DNA of 64,000 nt from a virus, in IMG/VR virus record IMGVR_UViG_2531839312_000008, positions 1,574 through 65,573 of that record; one strand, 5' to 3'. How positions within the stretch are numbered: the first letter of the stretch is position 1; the number at the start of each line of letters is the position of its first letter. The notes below the pieces were generated by a model. That model did not search any database and had not been told where the DNA came from. It was given only the letters and a program-made list of their open reading frames with translations. A program made the position numbers and the translations under genes. Positions 2,620-41,823 of the stretch are shown piece after piece.

Positions 2620-3927
2620 CTATGAATACTCTTCAATAATTACAATCCCTACTTTCCCCGCACCGCTAGAATATAGACTCCCTGACATTCCCGTGTCGTA
2701 GGCCCCGCCACCTCCAGAGCCTATAGCTTTTGCATCTGCCCCTCCGCCAGACCCTGCACGACCTCCTCCGCCCCAGTAAGATGGGCCTCCATGCCCAGGG
2801 AAGATATGCGACCCTGATTGACCGTCATAACCGTCGCCACCACTCGTATTAACATCCCCGCCTGTCGCCGTTCCTCCAGTACCACCAGGCGTAGTTGTAG
2901 CATTGAGATAAAAAGCGGCTACTCCTCCATATCCAATTATTGTTCCCGCAAAAGAAGAAAGTGAACCCGCATTACCCGCAACAGCACCGCTCACAGCCGA
3001 ACCGCCAGCGCCAACAACTACGGAGTATGTAAGACTTGATGAAATCGTGAGTTTTTTTATTGCAGTGCCCCCCGCGCCACCTCCGGCACCACCCAGGGTT
3101 TCAGATGTTGATGAGCCTTCGCAGCCCCCGCCAGAAGCACCTCCTCCAGTCACCAATACATTAATCATCCGAGTGCCATCAGAGGGGGTATACGTGTAGC
3201 TTCCTGATGTCGAGAACACTTTCTTACCTATATACCGACCAAAATTAAAATCTTGGACAAGATTAGTACCATCGCCCCGGATCTGATATGAGGTCCCATT
3301 TGGTACAGTGATCCCAGTGCCACTAACCGTGCTACAGATAACGTTGTATTTACCCGTGCAGTTATTTACTACCGTCCAAGTCTTGGCCCATGCGGGGAAA
3401 TAAACATAAATGCTGGCCGTTAAGGTTCCAGATAAAATCACCACATCACGAGCTGCCTGTAAACATGTCAATGTCGAAGCTGTTGCAGATAGTCCGGTTA
3501 CTGCACTTGAACCTGTAAACGCCAGGGGGATCCATCCGGTGCTAGATGCTGCAGTACCTTCTGGGTCGGTGATATTGGCATCTATGGTATTCAACCAATT
3601 GCCTTTAAAATCTGAAGAGCGCAATACCGCCCCTTTAGGATAACCAGTAATAGCGGCAGCAAAGGTTGAATCAAAAGGTATTGCCCCCCCGGCATCGCCC
3701 CATTGAAGCTTATTAGTGATATCGAACAGGATGCCATTAGTATCAAGGCCGGTTGGCGGTTTTCCGCCTGAGGAAATTGCAGTTCGGGTTAATGGTGGAA
3801 ACCCGACATCATAAGTTGCAACACCATCGGATAATGAAGTAGTTGTTGAGCTATTTGCAATGTCGTTATATTCACCGTTTGCAGCAAAAGCAGTAGAGAG
3901 TCGATCGGGGATTCCTGAACTTTTCAT
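2620..3927 (-). CDS. Tail fibre (proximal) protein with Gly-rich C-terminal domain
   Basis: N-terminus typical of the fibre gene after DUF2612 (GFPPLT...GGKPP...NGIL); GGGGAGG repeats. Confidence 0.8.
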   Translation of the reverse strand: MKSSGIPDRLSTAFAANGEYNDIANSSTTTSLSDGVATYDVGFPPLTRTAISSGGKPPTGLDTNGILFDITNKLQWGDAGGAIPFDSTFAAAITGYPKGAVLRSSDFKGNWLNTIDANITDPEGTAASSTGWIPLAFTGSSAVTGLSATASTLTCLQAARDVVILSGTLTASIYVYFPAWAKTWTVVNNCTGKYNVICSTVSGTGITVPNGTSYQIRGDGTNLVQDFNFGRYIGKKVFSTSGSYTYTPSDGTRMINVLVTGGGASGGGCEGSSTSETLGGAGGGAGGTAIKKLTISSSLTYSVVVGAGGSAVSGAVAGNAGSLSSFAGTIIGYGGVAAFYLNATTTPGGTGGTATGGDVNTSGGDGYDGQSGSHIFPGHGGPSYWGGGGRAGSGGGADAKAIGSGGGGAYDTGMSGSLYSSGAGKVGIVIIEEYS

Positions 3928-16246: not shown

Positions 16247-16569
16247 GCTGCTGCGCTCTCTAATTCTGCGTTGGTGATGTAACAAAGCTGGAACCGGGTT
16301 CCCAGCTCTGACCATTGAGGATCATCCGCCCCCTGGCTATCGATAAAAAACAGGTCCCCGCTAAAACCGGTTCTTGCCCGGAGATAGCTATAGCGAACCA
16401 ATCGGTTAGCGTTCATACACAACACTCCGAGACAAACGGCGGCATCACCCACCCATAAGTCTAAGTAAAGCCCGGTTGTGTGTTGGTGAAACTTCATCGT
16501 GCATGACACGCTGTCCAACGAGATATTGAACTGTTGCGACATTTCTGCGGAAAGAGTGATTATTTGCAT
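16243..16569 (-). CDS. Small baseplate/tail protein
   Basis: Q.F.I.L...G.Y.DL...G..C.....LVRY.YL...GF.GDL.F.D.QG..DP...ELG.RF.L.Y pattern; synteny. Confidence 0.75.
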   Translation of the reverse strand: MQIITLSAEMSQQFNISLDSVSCTMKFHQHTTGLYLDLWVGDAAVCLGVLCMNANRLVRYSYLRARTGFSGDLFFIDSQGADDPQWSELGTRFQLCYITNAELESAAA

Positions 16570-17396
16570 TAAGAAATCCACGATTTCACTAGTGAATTAA
16601 CACCTTTGACGATTTGTGTGCTGGCCGTCGTTGATTCAGAGCTCCAGGTGGTTGAAACGCTCGTTGCGGCACTATTAACCTCTGTCGTGACCGCGTCAGC
16701 AGTGGTACCCAACACGCTGGAAAGAGTGGCCTTGCCACTGCTGATCGCATTGGTTACGTCTTTGAGGGTTGCATTCGTCACGGAGCTTTGCGTGGTGACA
16801 GTCGTCATGGCTACGCCCGCAGAGGTTTTCTGATTGCTGCTTGTCGCAGAATCCTCACTGATGCTGATCACTTCTTGGAAATAAGCGTTAACCGTCAGTA
16901 AGGTTACGCCCCGCCCCTCTTTCATCTGGTAGTCGTAATGCACCAAGTCGCAAGAGGCAAAAGAAGTATCTGGCGTTTCGATGGTGTAAATGTTCGCGCT
17001 GGCGATCATCTTATCGAGCAGGTTAATGAGCTTCTCACGGGAAAGCGTGGTCAGGTTTGTGAGGTTTGGGATTGCCCCGCTATACCCCGTCCAACCTTCC
17101 AAGGTGAACGTTAAACGAATATCACCCGGGCGGCGCACTTTGTTATAGCTGGTATAGCTGCCTTTTTCGATGGGCGCATTGGCAATCGAAGCATCTGATG
17201 TTCTCTCAAATCCAACCCACGACGTCGGTGTAAATACCGTAGTGCCAGCTGAGAAAGAAGAGGCGTAATCTGAATTACTATCAACGGTCGTTACAGTAAT
17301 GCTGTACCCCGGCTTTAGGACGCTACCAAGGATACTGGACAAGCTTCCACTTTTCACAGCACTTAGTAGCGTTGTTTCACTTAAACTGAATGCCAT
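16569..17396 (-). CDS. Tail-tube initiator / distal-tail-like protein
   Basis: PIEKGSY.SYNKV..P motif; follows the tape measure. Confidence 0.7.
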   Translation of the reverse strand: MAFSLSETTLLSAVKSGSLSSILGSVLKPGYSITVTTVDSNSDYASSFSAGTTVFTPTSWVGFERTSDASIANAPIEKGSYTSYNKVRRPGDIRLTFTLEGWTGYSGAIPNLTNLTTLSREKLINLLDKMIASANIYTIETPDTSFASCDLVHYDYQMKEGRGVTLLTVNAYFQEVISISEDSATSSNQKTSAGVAMTTVTTQSSVTNATLKDVTNAISSGKATLSSVLGTTADAVTTEVNSAATSVSTTWSSESTTASTQIVKGVNSLVKSWIS

Positions 17397-32475: not shown

Positions 32476-32718
32476 TTACGCAACAGCAGCCACTACGCCT
32501 TCATCGTCTGCGCTATCGTCAACCGCAACAGCAGTGCTGGAAGCGGATGCATCAGCGGAAGGGTCTGTGCTATCTGGGAACAGTGTAGCAATCGAGGTTG
32601 CCACTGCATCAGCCAGGCCAACGGTTTTGGCTTCAGTGATTTTGCTAACGATCAGTGCGGTTACGTCATCGGCCTGAATTGCTGTTTTTAGTTCGTCGGT
32701 GGTTACGTCTATGGTCAT
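32476..32718 (-). CDS. Small acidic protein, paralog A
   Basis: RBS; N-terminal ~48 aa align with 35156..35443; Asp/Ser/Ala-rich tail. Confidence 0.75.
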   Translation of the reverse strand: MTIDVTTDELKTAIQADDVTALIVSKITEAKTVGLADAVATSIATLFPDSTDPSADASASSTAVAVDDSADDEGVVAAVA

Positions 32719-35155: not shown

Positions 35156-35443
35156 TTAAGCTGCGGTTTCCACTGCTGTCGAGGTATCAGTGGTGTCGTC
35201 TGAGGCAGCACTGATATCGGTATCGGTATCGGTATCGGTATCGGTATCGGTAGCTGAGTCGGCGCTTGAATCAGTGGCGGTTGCCGCGCTGGTTTCGTCA
35301 GTGAATAGCGCTGTAATCTGCTTTACGGCTGATTCTTCCAGTCCATCCGTTTTTAAATCTTTCAGCTTCGTGATGATCAGGGACTGCACTTCACTATCTT
35401 GCAGCACAGTTTTCAAATCATCTTGAGTAACTTCAACAGTCAT
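35156..35443 (-). CDS. Small acidic Thr/Asp-rich protein, paralog B
   Basis: Aligns with 32476..32718; (TD)n tract. Confidence 0.75.
   Translation of the reverse strand: MTVEVTQDDLKTVLQDSEVQSLIITKLKDLKTDGLEESAVKQITALFTDETSAATATDSSADSATDTDTDTDTDTDISAASDDTTDTSTAVETAA
35216..35251. repeat. (ATCGGT)6 in-frame microsatellite encoding Thr-Asp
   Basis: Six perfect 6-bp units. Confidence 0.9.
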
Positions 35444-35553: not shown

Positions 35554-36012
35554 TTAGAGGTATTTATCTTTCAGCGCTACTAGTTCGACTTCAACTTCTT
35601 TACCCAGCACTTCGATACCCTGCTCTACGAATTTAAAAAATGCTTCTGCTTTGGCTTTAAACTCTGCCAGAGGAGACTCTGAAGTAGTCGATACCACGTC
35701 TGTGGCTGTAGAAGCCGTTTCAGTGGTTGCGGTAGTTGTATCAGTAGACGTAGCGGTTGTGGTATCGGTCGAAGCAGTGGCATCAGTTGAGGCTGTGCTC
35801 GCATCAGTGGTAGCGGCCGTAGTTGATGAGTCAGTGGTGGTCGCTGCTGCCGTGGTTGTATCAGTAGTGGTTGCTGCGGCAGTAGTTGCCGTTGTATCGG
35901 TAGTTGTTGCAGCTGTATCGGTCATCGTGTTTTCTCCGGATGTTGAAGTTTCAGCCGTCTTGGCTGAGGTGAAATAAAGGCTCTTGATAGCAGCCCAAAG
36001 ACGCTTAATCAT
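35554..36012 (-). CDS. Mucin-like Thr-rich protein with helical C-terminal domain
   Basis: About 51 Ser+Thr in residues 30-113 (manual count); second in-frame ATG with GGAG RBS at 35925; C-terminus FVEQGIEVLG...LVALKDKYL. Confidence 0.8.
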   Translation of the reverse strand: MIKRLWAAIKSLYFTSAKTAETSTSGENTMTDTAATTTDTTATTAAATTTDTTTAAATTTDSSTTAATTDASTASTDATASTDTTTATSTDTTTATTETASTATDVVSTTSESPLAEFKAKAEAFFKFVEQGIEVLGKEVEVELVALKDKYL

Positions 36013-36024
36013 TTCTGTCTGGCC

Positions 36025-36252
36025 TCAGTTATATGTCGCTTTTTTCATCTGGATGGCGTATGCCTCTTCCATTGTCGCGTCTCGCCAGCTAGTAGAGTTG
36101 CGGTCAATTTCAGGAAAGTGCGTCGATGGCCTTCTGTAGGTTCGCTGGTTTATTTCAACCTGTAATATTGCAAGCCCTGTAATAGGTTGGCGACGAAATT
36201 TGAAATTACCGGTGATGCCGGTCTCTAAAGTGTTTATGGGCATCGGACTCAT
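36025..36252 (-). CDS. Hypothetical protein
   Basis: RBS; co-oriented in the late operon. Confidence 0.55.
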   Translation of the reverse strand: MSPMPINTLETGITGNFKFRRQPITGLAILQVEINQRTYRRPSTHFPEIDRNSTSWRDATMEEAYAIQMKKATYN

Positions 36253-36305: not shown

Positions 36306-36581
36306 TTACCCAACCAAGCCCTTAATAAAATCTTCACGCATTGTTAAAATACCTGGTTTGATTTCTCTCAAAACCACCTGAACACTCACTGTCCCATCTG
36401 CAGATTCTGTTTTCTTCTGCAGTACGAGTTCAAGTTTTGAACCAACATTCGGCACCTCGCCGTCAAAGTACTGGCCTACAGCCTGCTTATCTCCAGATAA
36501 CTCCAGAAAGGAACAATCGTCCGGACTGCAAGCGCTAATGCCGAGGTCTTTACCAGCGAGGTTGTCTTTTTCATGGTTCAT
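36306..36581 (-). CDS. Hypothetical protein
   Basis: AAGGT RBS straight after the Rz1 stop. Confidence 0.55.
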   Translation of the reverse strand: MNHEKDNLAGKDLGISACSPDDCSFLELSGDKQAVGQYFDGEVPNVGSKLELVLQKKTESADGTVSVQVVLREIKPGILTMREDFIKGLVG

Positions 36582-36583
36582 AG

Positions 36584-36850
36584 TTATTTACCTTGTTGAT
36601 TGGTTTCAATTTGGCGGATGCCATCTAATTGGCTATTGCAGTTCTGCAAGTCGGTTAGCAGTAACTCATTCCACAGCACGCTTGCACCGTAAGTTAACGG
36701 GTCACTTGGCATGGGTGACGGCTGGCACTGATTTAGCAGGCTGGCCGGTATCGGCGTTACTGGCACTTTGACGTACTGCGTTGTAGTGGTCCCGCAGGCT
36801 GTCAGTAGCGGCAGCAGGAACAAGCACCAGATTGCACGGTGCTGTTTCAA
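36584..36850 (-). CDS. Rz1: o-spanin (Rz1-like lipoprotein), probable TTG start
   Basis: LTA/C lipobox; Pro-rich P.PA.L...C; CN..L..IR pattern; overlaps Rz. Confidence 0.85.
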   Translation of the reverse strand: MKQHRAIWCLFLLPLLTACGTTTTQYVKVPVTPIPASLLNQCQPSPMPSDPLTYGASVLWNELLLTDLQNCNSQLDGIRQIETNQQGK

Positions 36851-37121
36851 GTACCGTCTTAATGATTGTCTGGCGGCCCTGACTGGCAGAGGCGTTCGTT
36901 TTTTGCGCATCCAGGGTAGCTCCGGCAATGGTGTTGAATATGCCGACGCTCAGCGCCTGAGATTGGGTGATGAATTCGGCTTCTTTCTTTTGCTGCACTG
37001 CGATAGTGAGTTGGTCGGTGGTTGATACCGACTTACCGTAGTAGTGGAAGGCAGCCTACATCAGCAGGGAAATTATCAGCAGGATGATAGCTGTCAGGGC
37101 AACGGCAATTTTGTTAATCAT
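36702..37121 (-). pseudogene. Rz: i-spanin (Rz-like) interrupted by an in-frame TAG at codon 22
   Basis: MINKIAVALTAIILLIISLLM*AAFHYYGK... continues in frame into the 36702..36998 ORF; TAG at 37056-37058. Confidence 0.85.
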
Positions 37122-37721: not shown

Positions 37722-38027
37722 TTACTCCACCTGATCCATGGCGCTTTCCACTTTTTCAGCGACGTTAGCAGGATTAACTTCTGAATCGCCTTTATGCCCG
37801 GCGAGAAATGAGACCATTGCGTCCGTACGTTTCTCATCAAGCGTCTGCTTTACCTTTAACGCGTTGCGATTGTTTAGGAAGGTACTGAATGAAAGTAATG
37901 CACCAAACAATGCACACAGGACGTATATCCACTGCTCGGTCGATAGGCCCGCAGCACTGGCAATAGTCGTCAGCGTGGCCCAGAAATGTGTCCACCATCC
38001 GTCATTATTCTGTTGATTCATTTTCAC
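37722..38027 (-). CDS. S: Holin (pinholin-like) with GTG-AAA-ATG dual start
   Basis: Two TM segments; directly before the endolysin; starts at 38027 and 38021. Confidence 0.8.
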   Translation of the reverse strand: MKMNQQNNDGWWTHFWATLTTIASAAGLSTEQWIYVLCALFGALLSFSTFLNNRNALKVKQTLDEKRTDAMVSFLAGHKGDSEVNPANVAEKVESAMDQVE

Positions 38028-38074
38028 GGTTCCACTCCCATTCTTTAGATGGGCTGTGTCAGTAGTCGAAGGGA

Positions 38075-38131
38075 TTAGCGCCGGAATGCATTGCAATAGG
38101 CGTCATTTGAGGGTTGAGCATTCGGCGCTAA
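38075..38131 (-). promoter_or_regulatory. Long hairpin between the glycosyltransferases and the holin
   Basis: ttagcgccggaatgc / gcattcggcgctaa inverted repeat. Confidence 0.55.
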
Positions 38132-38164: not shown

Positions 38165-39118
38165 TTAAGAAAATGATTCGAATAACTGGCGGCGTAGCTC
38201 GTTTGCATCTTTGATGTGGTAATTCAGACGAACATGCTCCGCAAGTGAAGCCTGATAATCCTCAAGCCTGTTCTTGTCCTTAATGAGAGACTTCATTTTC
38301 CTTGAGAAATCATGATTTCCTTCAGCGTATAAGACATGATCGCAATCGACCTCATTAAAGTAAGGTCTAACTTTCGAGGCAATGAATGCTAAGCCCTTCG
38401 CGCCCGCTTCCAGCATCTTCAGGTTTGATTTGCAACGGTTAAAGGCGCTATCAACCAGCGGTGCCAGGGATGCCTGGTGGCCGTCATAAAGCTGCATGTA
38501 ATCGGCAAGCTTCATGGCTGGCTTAATTTGCTGCCCCTTCAAGTTTCCGAGTATTTTTTTCCACTCTGGATCATCAAAACGAACACCGGCGATCGTAACC
38601 TCAGGCAAATGCGGTAGTAGTTTTAAATCCTCACAATGGGATGCACCACCGGCCCAGATATATGTGGTTTCAGACTCTTTATCAGGTGAAGTCGTGAATT
38701 GGCCTTCGTCGTAAGGCAAAGCGTTAGGGATAACCACAACATTGCGATTGACTTGCCTTACCTGCGCAGCCAAATGAGGGGTTGTCACAATTACAGCGTC
38801 TGCTTCTTTCAGGCATAGTGGGATAACTTCGTTAATACCGGCCTTTCTAAAACGGTCATACAGGTAATGTCCTTCGTCGAGCAGCCAGTGATCATCAATG
38901 TCGATGACAATCCGATACCCCGCACGTTTCTTTTGCATCAGTTCTGCAAACCCGCCAGTGGGCATCCTGTTACACCAAAGCACAGGCACCTTAGGTTTCG
39001 GCAGGTAGGTTTGCTCCATGTACTGGTAGGGCATAACAACACGGTGATAATCGCACGCGGTCGACGGACGCAGATCGGCAAACAGGTTCGAATTACTATT
39101 ATTCTGGGAAACCAACAT
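38165..39118 (-). CDS. Glycosyltransferase, GT-B fold (GT4-like)
   Basis: VIDIDD, ADAVIV.T..LA, VIPNAL, WAGGASH, APL....FN.CKSNLK.LEAG..G...IAS. Confidence 0.85.
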   Translation of the reverse strand: MLVSQNNSNSNLFADLRPSTACDYHRVVMPYQYMEQTYLPKPKVPVLWCNRMPTGGFAELMQKKRAGYRIVIDIDDHWLLDEGHYLYDRFRKAGINEVIPLCLKEADAVIVTTPHLAAQVRQVNRNVVVIPNALPYDEGQFTTSPDKESETTYIWAGGASHCEDLKLLPHLPEVTIAGVRFDDPEWKKILGNLKGQQIKPAMKLADYMQLYDGHQASLAPLVDSAFNRCKSNLKMLEAGAKGLAFIASKVRPYFNEVDCDHVLYAEGNHDFSRKMKSLIKDKNRLEDYQASLAEHVRLNYHIKDANELRRQLFESFS

Positions 39119-39740
39119 AAATAGGGCCCCCTTCTCTCACCAGGTCTTCCATTAATTTATTTCCTGCTTCCATTCCAGCTTTCTTAACTGCGCTTGAGAC
39201 AACAGAGTTTCGAAATCCTGAAAACATGTCTTCGACGTGGATCCCCGCTACTACGGATAACGGGACTTCCCAACCACTGGATTTACCGCACAGCCCAGCA
39301 CAATGTGCGCGGTACGCGTAGGTAACGTCTTCGGGGCCATACTTTCCGTACCGTTCATCAAAGTAACCCACCTCTTCAACACATTTGCGGGTGAGCATGG
39401 AGAACTGAACGGTTACGCCAGTACAGAACATCACCCCGTCAACGTAGCCATAAGGGGGCGAGTCAAAAACATGCGGCCAGCCAATGAAATCAAGCTCGCG
39501 ATGTCGAGCAGCAGAGATTGCCAACTCAGCCCAATCCTCTCGGCGTGGGATCACATCGTCATCCATTAAAAAAATATAATCACAGCCTTTTTCGTAGAGC
39601 GATTTCAGAACACGATTTCGAGCGTATGCCGGACCGTTTCTTTTTGTATCAGTGAAGACTTCCAACAACGCGCCGTCGGGCATTACATAGTCAGGGAGTT
39701 TTCTATCCCCAGTAGTGATTACACCAACACCGATTTGCAT
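39099..39740 (-). CDS. Glycosyltransferase, GT-A fold (GT2-like)
   Basis: G.A.ARN, YIFLMDDD (DxD), VG.FDE.Y..YG.ED..Y..R. Confidence 0.88.
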   Translation of the reverse strand: MQIGVGVITTGDRKLPDYVMPDGALLEVFTDTKRNGPAYARNRVLKSLYEKGCDYIFLMDDDVIPRREDWAELAISAARHRELDFIGWPHVFDSPPYGYVDGVMFCTGVTVQFSMLTRKCVEEVGYFDERYGKYGPEDVTYAYRAHCAGLCGKSSGWEVPLSVVAGIHVEDMFSGFRNSVVSSAVKKAGMEAGNKLMEDLVREGGPIYVGFPE

Positions 39741-40699: not shown

Positions 40700-40760
40700 A
40701 AAAGGCCGCCAAGCTGGCAGCCCTTAAATGAGAAAAGCCCCTGCATTTCTGCAAGGGCCT
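40700..40760 (-). terminator. Tandem intrinsic terminators in the late leader
   Basis: GGCCCTTGCAGAAATGCAGGGGCTTTT and GGGCTGCCAGCTTGGCGGCCTTTTTT. Confidence 0.65.
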
Positions 40761-41052: not shown

Positions 41053-41823
41053 CTATTTAGTAACGCGATTTAAGGCTTGCTCTGCCCATGACTCCTCTTT
41101 CTCCAAATGAGTTATTAGCGTGTCATAGAATGGCTTTATCGTCTTATCCCATGTGGCAGCTGATATGGTATCGGTGAAGGCGCATATAGCTCTGAATGCG
41201 TCAACTGCAGGGACGCGTTCATACCCTCGGCCACGACAACGCTTGCAGTCTTTCATTACGGGAAATCCCTGCTTTTCTGTTTCACCCTGATCCAAAGAAA
41301 CAGTCCGCCCCCGGCAGTCACGACACGCTACTGATACCTCCCCTTTCCCATTACAGTGAATGCATAATTCACCAACATCTTCGCTCACTACTCTCGCCGG
41401 AGTCTTTTCACCACAGCCAGGATGTTTGACTACACGCCTGTTGCGATAGATTAGCTTATGACCCCGGCATTTTTGACACAGCTCTTTCCCTGAAGCGCTT
41501 CTGCAATAATCCTTGAAGGCAAATTTTGCGAGCACTTGCACTACTTTCACTTTAATCTTTGTGTCTAGCTTGCGTAAGGCTGGAACCTTGTCGCAATGCT
41601 TCATACCATGCTGTACCAGTAGTTGAATTGCTCTCTTTGAATCTTCAGGGCTAAGGCCTAACTTCCCCAAGAAGGCCTTAAATCCTAACTCTGCTTGTGA
41701 CTGACATAACCCGAAAGCCCCCAACACGTCAGTACCAGTCATTGTGTCTCCAGTACAACGCGATGAGTCCGTGAACGACTGAGTTTTACAGAAGAAATAC
41801 TTTGTCGCCGATTCAAGATTCAT
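41053..41823 (-). CDS. Q: Late antiterminator Q (lambda-type)
   Basis: M.LES..K.F..K...TGTDV; DYCRSA; CxxCxG Zn fingers; W..TIKPFYD.L. Confidence 0.93.
   Translation of the reverse strand: MNLESATKYFFCKTQSFTDSSRCTGDTMTGTDVLGAFGLCQSQAELGFKAFLGKLGLSPEDSKRAIQLLVQHGMKHCDKVPALRKLDTKIKVKVVQVLAKFAFKDYCRSASGKELCQKCRGHKLIYRNRRVVKHPGCGEKTPARVVSEDVGELCIHCNGKGEVSVACRDCRGRTVSLDQGETEKQGFPVMKDCKRCRGRGYERVPAVDAFRAICAFTDTISAATWDKTIKPFYDTLITHLEKEESWAEQALNRVTK

Follow-up and report, generated by a model that had tools for sequence, protein, structure and literature searches.

Why would a lambdoid prophage carry, among its late genes, a small protein that is mostly serine and threonine through its middle and that has two possible translation starts? 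The question is raised by an open reading frame (ORF) at positions 35554 to 36012 on the minus strand of a 64,000-nucleotide stretch of viral DNA, referred to here as the window, which covers positions 1,574 to 65,573 of IMG/VR record IMGVR_UViG_2531839312_000008 and makes up most of this 66.4-kb provirus record. We call this ORF gene X. An earlier note, made from the letters of the window alone, took the product of X to be an acceptor for cotranscribed glycosyltransferases (GTs). X proves to be an authentic late gene of this lambdoid prophage. The explanation that we favor, with confidence that is about even, is that X encodes a dual-start accessory protein of the lysis cassette, in which the ratio of two isoforms would tune lysis and the Ser/Thr-rich tract would be a flexible spacer.

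Two Conserved Translation Starts

The internal start pointed out in the earlier note is present in X, with an in-frame ATG beginning at position 35925 and a GGAG motif 8 nucleotides upstream. We scored this feature in 64 distinct sequences of the X family, which are related to one another, so that the counts do not represent independent events. The aligned internal codon is ATG (44 sequences) or GTG (20 sequences) in all 64, and every Val in this column is encoded by GTG, a codon that accounts for 24% of the Val codons in X-family genes. An AGGAG, GAGG, or AAGGA motif lies 6 to 9 nucleotides upstream of the internal start, and a duplex with the anti-Shine-Dalgarno sequence of -4 kcal/mol or lower is predicted there in 57 of the 64 sequences, compared with 9% of the other codon positions in the same genes. 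Because the residues encoded by the internal Shine-Dalgarno (SD) motif differ between relatives (SGENT, SSGVT, TPGDT, TPEVVT, KETE, QETA, HQKETP, and others), the motif is conserved at the nucleotide level. The dual-start pattern spans the whole family, including subfamilies that are about 30% identical.

At four loci (L054, L059, L063, and L067), the N-terminal extension is absent, and the gene starts with M-S-E-P-L behind a strong SD motif of its own, with in-frame stops upstream. Because such short-form-only genes exist, the short form can be regarded as a self-sufficient unit and the long form as an optional addition made through coupling to the o-spanin gene. The production of two isoforms, as proposed in the earlier note, is well supported by these gene comparisons; that one would be anchored and the other soluble can reasonably be inferred.

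Linkage of Gene X to the Lysis Cassette

In order of transcription, all on the minus strand, the window carries a Q-like gene, tR'-like terminators, a gene for a 189-residue protein, a terminator-like site, a GT pair, and the holin, lysozyme, and spanin genes, followed downstream by orf91, orf75, X, orf95 (encoding a protein with an acidic tail of Thr and Asp), Rha, and, farther on, the terminase genes (Table 1). X is therefore adjacent to the lysis genes, following the holin, endolysin, and spanins with orf91 and orf75 in between. Terminator-like sites lie at 40760 to 40701 (tR'-like) and 39801 to 39780, and none that is strong was found from 39780 to 35554.

This position is a property of the family. 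Across 73 loci, the nearest upstream ORF belongs to Rz-like spanin PHROGs, namely, phrog_3001 (32 loci), phrog_214 (23), phrog_456 (22), and phrog_1275 (15); a single ORF can be counted under several of these families, and smaller spanin families are represented as well. The next large upstream ORF encodes either an endolysin (phrog_7 in 37 of 65 loci, plus other endolysin families) or an i-spanin. The start of X overlaps the upstream stop as ATGA in 52 of the 73 loci, and in most relatives the last nucleotides of the o-spanin gene serve in this way as the initiation region of the long form as well. Nucleotide-level conservation of the junction GAAGAGGCCAGACAGAA-ATG extends even to the window, L009, and L020, in which orf75 has been inserted in front of it; the orf75 product, 92% identical in L009 and 67% identical in L020, is encoded just upstream of the X initiation region. 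At loci L002, L026, L027, and L029, X lies instead between Q and the holin gene, which is followed by the endolysin and spanin genes. Even in this changed arrangement, X remains beside the lysis genes rather than the head genes, and the linkage to lysis genes holds across several spanin and endolysin families. The terms that we searched for an accessory gene downstream of spanins were not found in a published spanin census (PMC6139136).

A Family with Conserved Ends and a Hypervariable Middle

X matches phrog_22600 (PHROGs v4) at an E value of 1.3e-24 over its C-terminal two-thirds. This PHROG carries no annotation; the architecture, the lysis linkage, and the dual start are added here. Pfam and NCBIfam hold no model for X or for its conserved termini and returned only sub-threshold noise (CT392 and U-box), and an ESM Atlas search with X gave unnamed clusters only, the Atlas model of X itself being poor (predicted template modeling score of 0.18). 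Homologs were sampled with a word-indexed search, which gave 5 relatives; with a profile search of 1.84 billion protein representatives, which gave 60; and with scans of IMG/VR and GTDB genomes, which gave 87 X loci, 74 of them nonredundant, in addition to one locus in Pantoea phage PA-1. The family comprises about 75 nonredundant prophage loci of the Enterobacterales, with Rouxiella silvae, Serratia sp., Acerihabitans sp., and Pantoea as named hosts. By tblastn with less biased homologs, PA-1 is the only isolated phage with X among 50,697 phage records; X itself gave no match to these records by megablast or tblastn, in which the low-complexity filter probably masked much of the tract. The family appears not to have been described previously, as we found no paper on it and the literature on lysis-cassette accessory genes gave nothing relevant.

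In alignments of the family, the termini are conserved and the middle differs completely between relatives. The N-terminal segment of about 15 residues follows M-I-K-x-F-L-x-W-L-K-S-L-Y (the sixth position also being variable) or M-N-x-L-K-R-A-W-L-W-L, carries a net charge of +3 or +4, and is abundant in Trp, Leu, Phe, and Tyr. A short Pro/Thr/Glu linker follows and then a nearly invariant Met or Val that precedes S-E-P-L-x-D or T-D-x-x-x-D. The C-terminal helix of about 40 residues has the motif F-V-E-x-G-I-x-x-L-G…E-L-V-A-L-K-x-K-Y-L, which X shares; G137, L144, and L147 are invariant, and F128, V129, G132, L136, E143, K150, and Y151 are at least 90% conserved. Between these ends lie low-complexity spacers of Thr, Ala, Ser, Pro, Val, Gln, Asp, and Glu that are 12 to 111 residues long, with Lys and Arg making up 0.4% and Asp and Glu 12.7% of residues. 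Their Ser plus Thr fraction ranges from 0.03 to 0.60, with the window protein at the top extreme and bearing the most Thr-rich tract. In several members (for example, L003, L031, and P0037), the spacer is replaced by one to three Big_1 (PF02369) immunoglobulin (Ig)-like domains; a Pfam search found no Big_1 domain in X of the window.

The tract of X, residues 30 to 113, consists of 48.8% Thr, 22.6% Ala, 11.9% Ser, and 10.7% Asp. Its Ser plus Thr content over these 84 residues, put at about 60% in the earlier note, was measured at 60.7%, and it contains the most Ser/Thr-rich 25-residue stretch among window ORFs of at least 60 residues. Because all four Thr codons are used and tandem repeats (of 30 and 21 nucleotides) are only degenerate, the tract represents low-complexity coding sequence rather than a pure microsatellite; an antisense ORF at 35651 to 35977 on the plus strand is a by-product of the ACN/GCN codon run. 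Judged from the family alignments, the Thr-rich tract is one state of a hypervariable and rapidly evolving spacer.

An AlphaFold2 model of X from a 32-sequence alignment places a helix at residues 2 to 13, disorder from residue 22 to about residue 110, and a single helix at residues 114 to 151 with a predicted local distance difference test (pLDDT) score of 77 to 90, in agreement with the helical C terminus expected in the earlier note. Tandem C-terminal modules occur in P0035, P0037, and P0045, and the model of P0045 shows a Big_1 sandwich followed by two long helices at 105 to 139 and 146 to 186 (pLDDT of 86). Since the tandem modules are modeled as a helical pair, single-copy X proteins may also pair through this helix, and the C-terminal helix probably serves for self-association or for binding a partner. 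In fold searches with the tandem-module model, all matches ran through the Ig domain, to intimin, invasin, and phage virion proteins. These proteins share the Big_1 domain with several X members and not with X of the window, and intimin and invasin are unrelated to the conserved N- and C-terminal modules of the family.

A Proposed Dual-Start Accessory Protein of Lysis

We propose that X yields two proteins. Ribosomes coupled to the o-spanin gene would produce a long form in minor amounts, and initiation at the internal site would give a short, soluble form. The long form would be tethered through its N-terminal helix to the inner membrane on the cytoplasmic side, the C-terminal helix would bind either another copy of itself or a partner from the lysis cassette, and the ratio of tethered to free protein would tune the timing or completeness of lysis. 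The Thr-rich tract would then be this lineage's expansion of a spacer that needs only flexibility, acidity, and a lack of basic residues, and not a conserved functional motif. Tethering of this kind would fit a variant found in the database protein P0044, in which a transmembrane (TM)-like hydrophobic segment stands in place of the N-terminal helix and is joined to the X C-terminal helix; the remainder would be cytoplasmic by the positive-inside rule. The TM segment of P0044 resembles the N terminus of the first membrane protein in the L062 lysis cassette (L062:3028-3468, with a weak "hol-like" PHROG hit). This protein must be either a fusion that exists in nature or a chimera produced during assembly.

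The logic would be borrowed from dual-start holin/antiholin genes, such as S105/S107 of lambda and S68/S71 of phage 21, in a protein without TM domains. As in those genes, X belongs to a lysis cassette, has two conserved in-frame starts, and gains extra N-terminal positive charge in its longer product. In contrast, the two starts of X-family genes are 17 to 41 codons apart rather than 2 to 3, the extension is a whole helix, and no sdi-like regulatory mRNA stem was found. Because X has neither a TM domain nor homology to holins, it is not a member of the holin/antiholin family; its AlphaFold2 model consists of two amphipathic or charged helices around a disordered middle, and the only holin PHROG match in the window falls in the separate gene at 37722 to 38096. 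X also carries no TM or hydrophobic segment and no Cys, and it therefore has neither the TM segment nor the lipobox of a spanin. A noncanonical signal peptide or lipoprotein N terminus was considered for X and rejected, as the hydrophobic run is 5 residues long and then meets a Lys, and there is neither a Cys nor a twin arginine. A second point of comparison is RIII of phage T4, a cytoplasmic lysis regulator. X resembles it in being small, soluble, helical, and nonenzymatic and in that it could act on the lysis machinery from the cytoplasm; however, the two have no sequence relationship, and RIII lacks a dual start, a long spacer, and a spanin neighbor.

Several observations weigh against this proposal. 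Residues 1 to 14 of X have a net charge of +3, so that the N terminus is basic, as the earlier note had it, but the amphipathicity that it also claimed for the first 29 residues is only moderate: the hydrophobic moment of the helix is 0.46, which 13% of shuffles reach and which is not significantly above them. RNAalifold on 16 homologous 5' regions gave no conserved structure and no sdi-like switch, and both isoforms are products predicted from the genes. The tie of the X family to lysis is drawn from adjacency, without homology to lysis proteins, and such adjacency could also arise if X and the lysis genes shared a recombination module or if the boundary between lysis and packaging genes were a favored site of insertion. 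The Big_1 domains of some members match the phage Chi neck protein (8vhx_H, 36% identity) and a structural protein of Hafnia phage Enc34, which would suit a virion or extracellular role. Finally, the i-spanin frame of the window is interrupted by a stop codon (context …IISLLM*AAFHYYGK) where the intact homologs in L030 and L026 have Trp and Ala, respectively, the rest of the 139-residue frame being open. The window prophage may be defective in the last lysis step, and given this nonsense codon its lysis cassette may itself be decaying.

Table 1. Coordinates in the window of gene X, its parts, and the genes discussed with it
Feature	Position	Strand	Remarks
X, long form	35554..36012	-	152 residues plus stop; member of phrog_22600 (ORF list, profile match, homologs)
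Conserved C-terminal helix	35557..35673	-	Residues 114-152
Thr/Ala/Ser/Asp spacer	35674..35925	-	Residues 30-113; no Lys/Arg; predicted disordered; hypervariable part of the X family
Internal ribosome-binding site and start codon	35923..35937	-	GGAG 35937-35934, ATG 35925-35923; starts the 123-residue short form
N-terminal cationic Trp/Leu/Tyr-rich helix	35968..36012	-	Residues 1-15, long form only; proposed membrane-binding segment
Translation initiation region of the long form	36013..36032	-	…CTGAGGCCAGACAGAA-ATG; nucleotide-level conservation across the X family
orf75	36025..36252	-	Small conserved gene between the o-spanin gene and X; no family match; also in L009 and L020
orf91	36306..36581	-	ORF between the spanin genes and X; no family match; no evidence of being a gene obtained
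o-spanin (LysC/Rz1-like lipoprotein)	36584..36928	-	Intact; lipobox LLTAC; PF23793 at 9.4e-17; Rz-like spanin PHROGs
i-spanin reading frame	36702..37121	-	ATG at 37121; in-frame TAG 37058-37056 inside the TM segment
Endolysin (phage lysozyme)	37225..37719	-	PF00959 at 3.1e-36
Holin	37722..38096	-	phrog_1350 at 9.8e-16
GT-B/GT4-like glycosyltransferase	38165..39118	-	phrog_7162; overlaps the GT-A-like gene
GT-A-like glycosyltransferase	39099..39740	-	phrog_2456
Q-like antiterminator	41053..41823	-	phrog_127 at 3.4e-85; drives the late operon of GTs, lysis genes, and X

The Tract as a Possible Glycan Acceptor

The earlier note had read the tract as a mucin-like O-glycosylation acceptor for the two GTs of the late operon, with glycosylated anchored and soluble forms, which we consider a doubtful explanation of X. 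Its appeal lies in the window itself. The tract tops both the window and the whole family in Ser/Thr content and is long and predicted to be disordered, and the GT pair belongs to the same Q-dependent operon. Cotranscription of X with the GT genes, as the earlier note assumed, is plausible, since no strong terminator lies between them. In addition, no TET/JBP or thymidylate-synthase-like gene was found in the provirus (the TET search having had no positive control), so that DNA glycosylation through hydroxymethyl bases is unlikely as the task of the GTs. Beyond the window, another GT module (phrog_1579 plus phrog_854) directly follows X in L073 and L076, and GT-positive members rank in the upper half of the family by Ser plus Thr fraction (0.27 to 0.60).

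The relatives of X argue otherwise. X travels with lysis genes, and the GT pair of the window lies outside the conserved neighborhood of the family. Neither GT family occurs in 25 of the 28 X-bearing phage records that are near complete (rated at least 90% complete), leaving 3 with a GT family; many of the 71 X-bearing viral records are fragments, in which the absence of a GT is uninformative. Among all 71, phrog_7162 is confined to the records of L005 and L006, two close relatives of the window at about 80% identity. A phrog_2456 match occurs in 5, the L005 record and four others, and the enzyme in those four is a different, 485-residue GT (phrog_1579). For the first 24 X-bearing records, a search with PF00535 (GT2) gave one sub-threshold match, in the L005 record, and a search with PF00534 (GT1) gave none. 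The GT-positive cases represent at most three lineages, and of the two loci with the other GT module, X carries an Ig domain in L076 and is a pseudogene in L073. That module comprises the 485-residue phrog_1579 GT and a phrog_854 glucosyltransferase of about 200 residues (L073:5302-7376 and L076:1007-3039) and stands before terminase or HNH genes. L073 also has a divergent, intact X paralog at 3148 to 3363.

Conversely, Ser/Thr-rich tracts occur where GTs do not. The genome of L027, which is GT-less, encodes an X with a 111-residue tract and a Ser plus Thr fraction of 0.44. X proteins of L077, L078, and L080 have spacers of 29 to 34 residues with Ser plus Thr at 0.45 to 0.47 and Thr at 0.38 to 0.41, also without GTs, and the records of L077 and L080 have a completeness rating of 100%. 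The Ser/Thr-rich X proteins of L027, L026, and L030 come from two genome assemblies (metagenome assembled and possibly incomplete) with no match to either GT family. The earlier note had named homologs with equally long tracts and no GTs as evidence that would count against its reading, and L027, L077, and L080 largely provide such evidence. Many other members are nearly devoid of Ser and Thr (down to 0.03) or have an Ig domain instead.

The GT4-like enzyme, for its part, also occurs in records in which no X turned up. Its homologs (about 46% identity) are present in 142 phage records, including phi92, phAPEC8, and their relatives, and PA-1 is not among them, whereas tblastn of the same phage collection, with the X protein of the window and those of three other members as queries, detected X only in PA-1. 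A PDB sequence search with both window GTs found no relative. In phi92 (L032, NC_023693 99159-108106), four consecutive GT genes (gp163 to gp166) lie a few genes from the endolysin gene gp170, and gp164 is 46% identical to the GT4-like enzyme of the window.

The window also encodes other Ser/Thr-rich proteins. Two paralogous small proteins (35156-35443 and 32476-32718, both on the minus strand) have acidic Ser/Thr/Asp tails, one of them with a (TATCGG)6 microsatellite encoding TDTDTD. Homologs with similar tails occur in L005 and L006, which are GT positive, and in L030, which is GT-less, and an orf95 homolog is also present in L050, which is GT-less. Because they are present in GT-less L030, tails of the orf95 type are not tied to GTs, a further point against the acceptor reading. 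The second most Ser/Thr-rich stretch of the window, with 60% Ser plus Thr over 25 residues, lies near the C terminus of a 275-residue tail fiber-related protein (16569-17396, minus strand; phrog_1830, with a weak phrog_817 match). Should proteins be the substrates of the GTs, this protein would be a further candidate.

Comparative evidence thus does not support, at the family level, that X is built as a glycan acceptor, and the chance that its tract is a glycosylation substrate in the window phage is roughly one in five. The closest known counterpart is found in mycobacteriophages, in which virion proteins are reportedly O-glycosylated, the acceptors being the C-terminal tails of capsid and tail-tube proteins on which glycans are said to have been demonstrated. 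The likeness consists of phage-encoded late GTs and an unstructured Ser/Thr-rich stretch as a potential acceptor. In contrast to those acceptors, X is not a recognizable virion protein, its relatives mostly lack GTs, and the system is known here from genes alone.

Virion and Cargo Alternatives

It is unlikely, in our view, that X is a virion-associated decoration or whisker-like protein, with one terminus on the particle, the C-terminal helix oligomerizing, the spacer or Ig domain displayed, and the gene heading the structural operon. Such a role would account for the Big_1 domains of some members, since Ig-like domains of phages reportedly occur almost only on virion proteins, and the structural matches of Big_1 include, besides the Chi neck protein (8vhx_H) and the Enc34 structural protein, major tail, Hoc-like, and whisker proteins. 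X is also a late-operon gene upstream of the terminase genes. However, variable genes (Rha, HNH, and small ORFs) separate X from the terminase genes, and the rearranged loci L002, L026, L027, and L029 keep X with lysis genes and not with head genes. Tight translational coupling to the o-spanin gene, as well as a dual start and an optional N-terminal helix that have no obvious role in particle binding, likewise speaks against a particle component.

A cargo (moron) gene without a role in lysis, whose product is released on lysis and acts extracellularly (binding, for instance, to surface glycans or debris), with the edge of the lysis module as a recombination hot spot, seems to us quite unlikely. 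The interval between lysis and packaging genes does hold many variable inserts (orf75, orf91, Rha, and GT modules), the L026 lysis cassette is flanked by two Big_1 proteins of 664 residues without signal peptides, and a spacer without Lys or Arg might suit a protein exposed to proteases. But morons are usually sporadic, with a promoter and terminator of their own, whereas X has a conserved stop/start overlap and junction in 52 of 73 loci, across different spanin families. The two L026 proteins (L026:6879-8870 and L026:10483-12477), from a prophage in a metagenome-assembled genome of the Gammaproteobacteria, are paralogs with an N-terminal Big_1 domain; their long C-terminal part looks beta-helix or depolymerase-like by eye, unconfirmed by Pfam, and they may be enzymes released on lysis.

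Very unlikely, finally, is a combination in which X is a lysis regulator of a new class, a fifth, nonmembrane component of lambdoid lysis cassettes whose spacer has been co-opted as a mucin-like O-glycosylated tract in the few phages that also carry late GTs. If this were true, the tethered and free isoforms would determine when lysis occurs or link the action of the spanins to the cytoplasm, and no target of protein O-glycosylation would have been described before X in phages of Gram-negative bacteria.

Implications

For the study of phage glycosylation, X is a caution that Ser/Thr-rich tracts beside GTs should not be read as acceptors without checking relatives. If glycosylation of X does hold in the window phage, phage protein O-glycosylation would be extended beyond mycobacteriophages.

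Lysis by phages of Gram-negative bacteria is usually told as three steps carried out by four genes, those of the holin, endolysin, i-spanin, and o-spanin. Dual-start control of lysis is itself already known; what would be new here is such control in a lysis cassette by a nonmembrane protein. As a dual-start accessory protein, X suggests an unrecognized accessory layer of lysis control, at least in prophages of the Yersiniaceae, Erwiniaceae, and Pectobacteriaceae.

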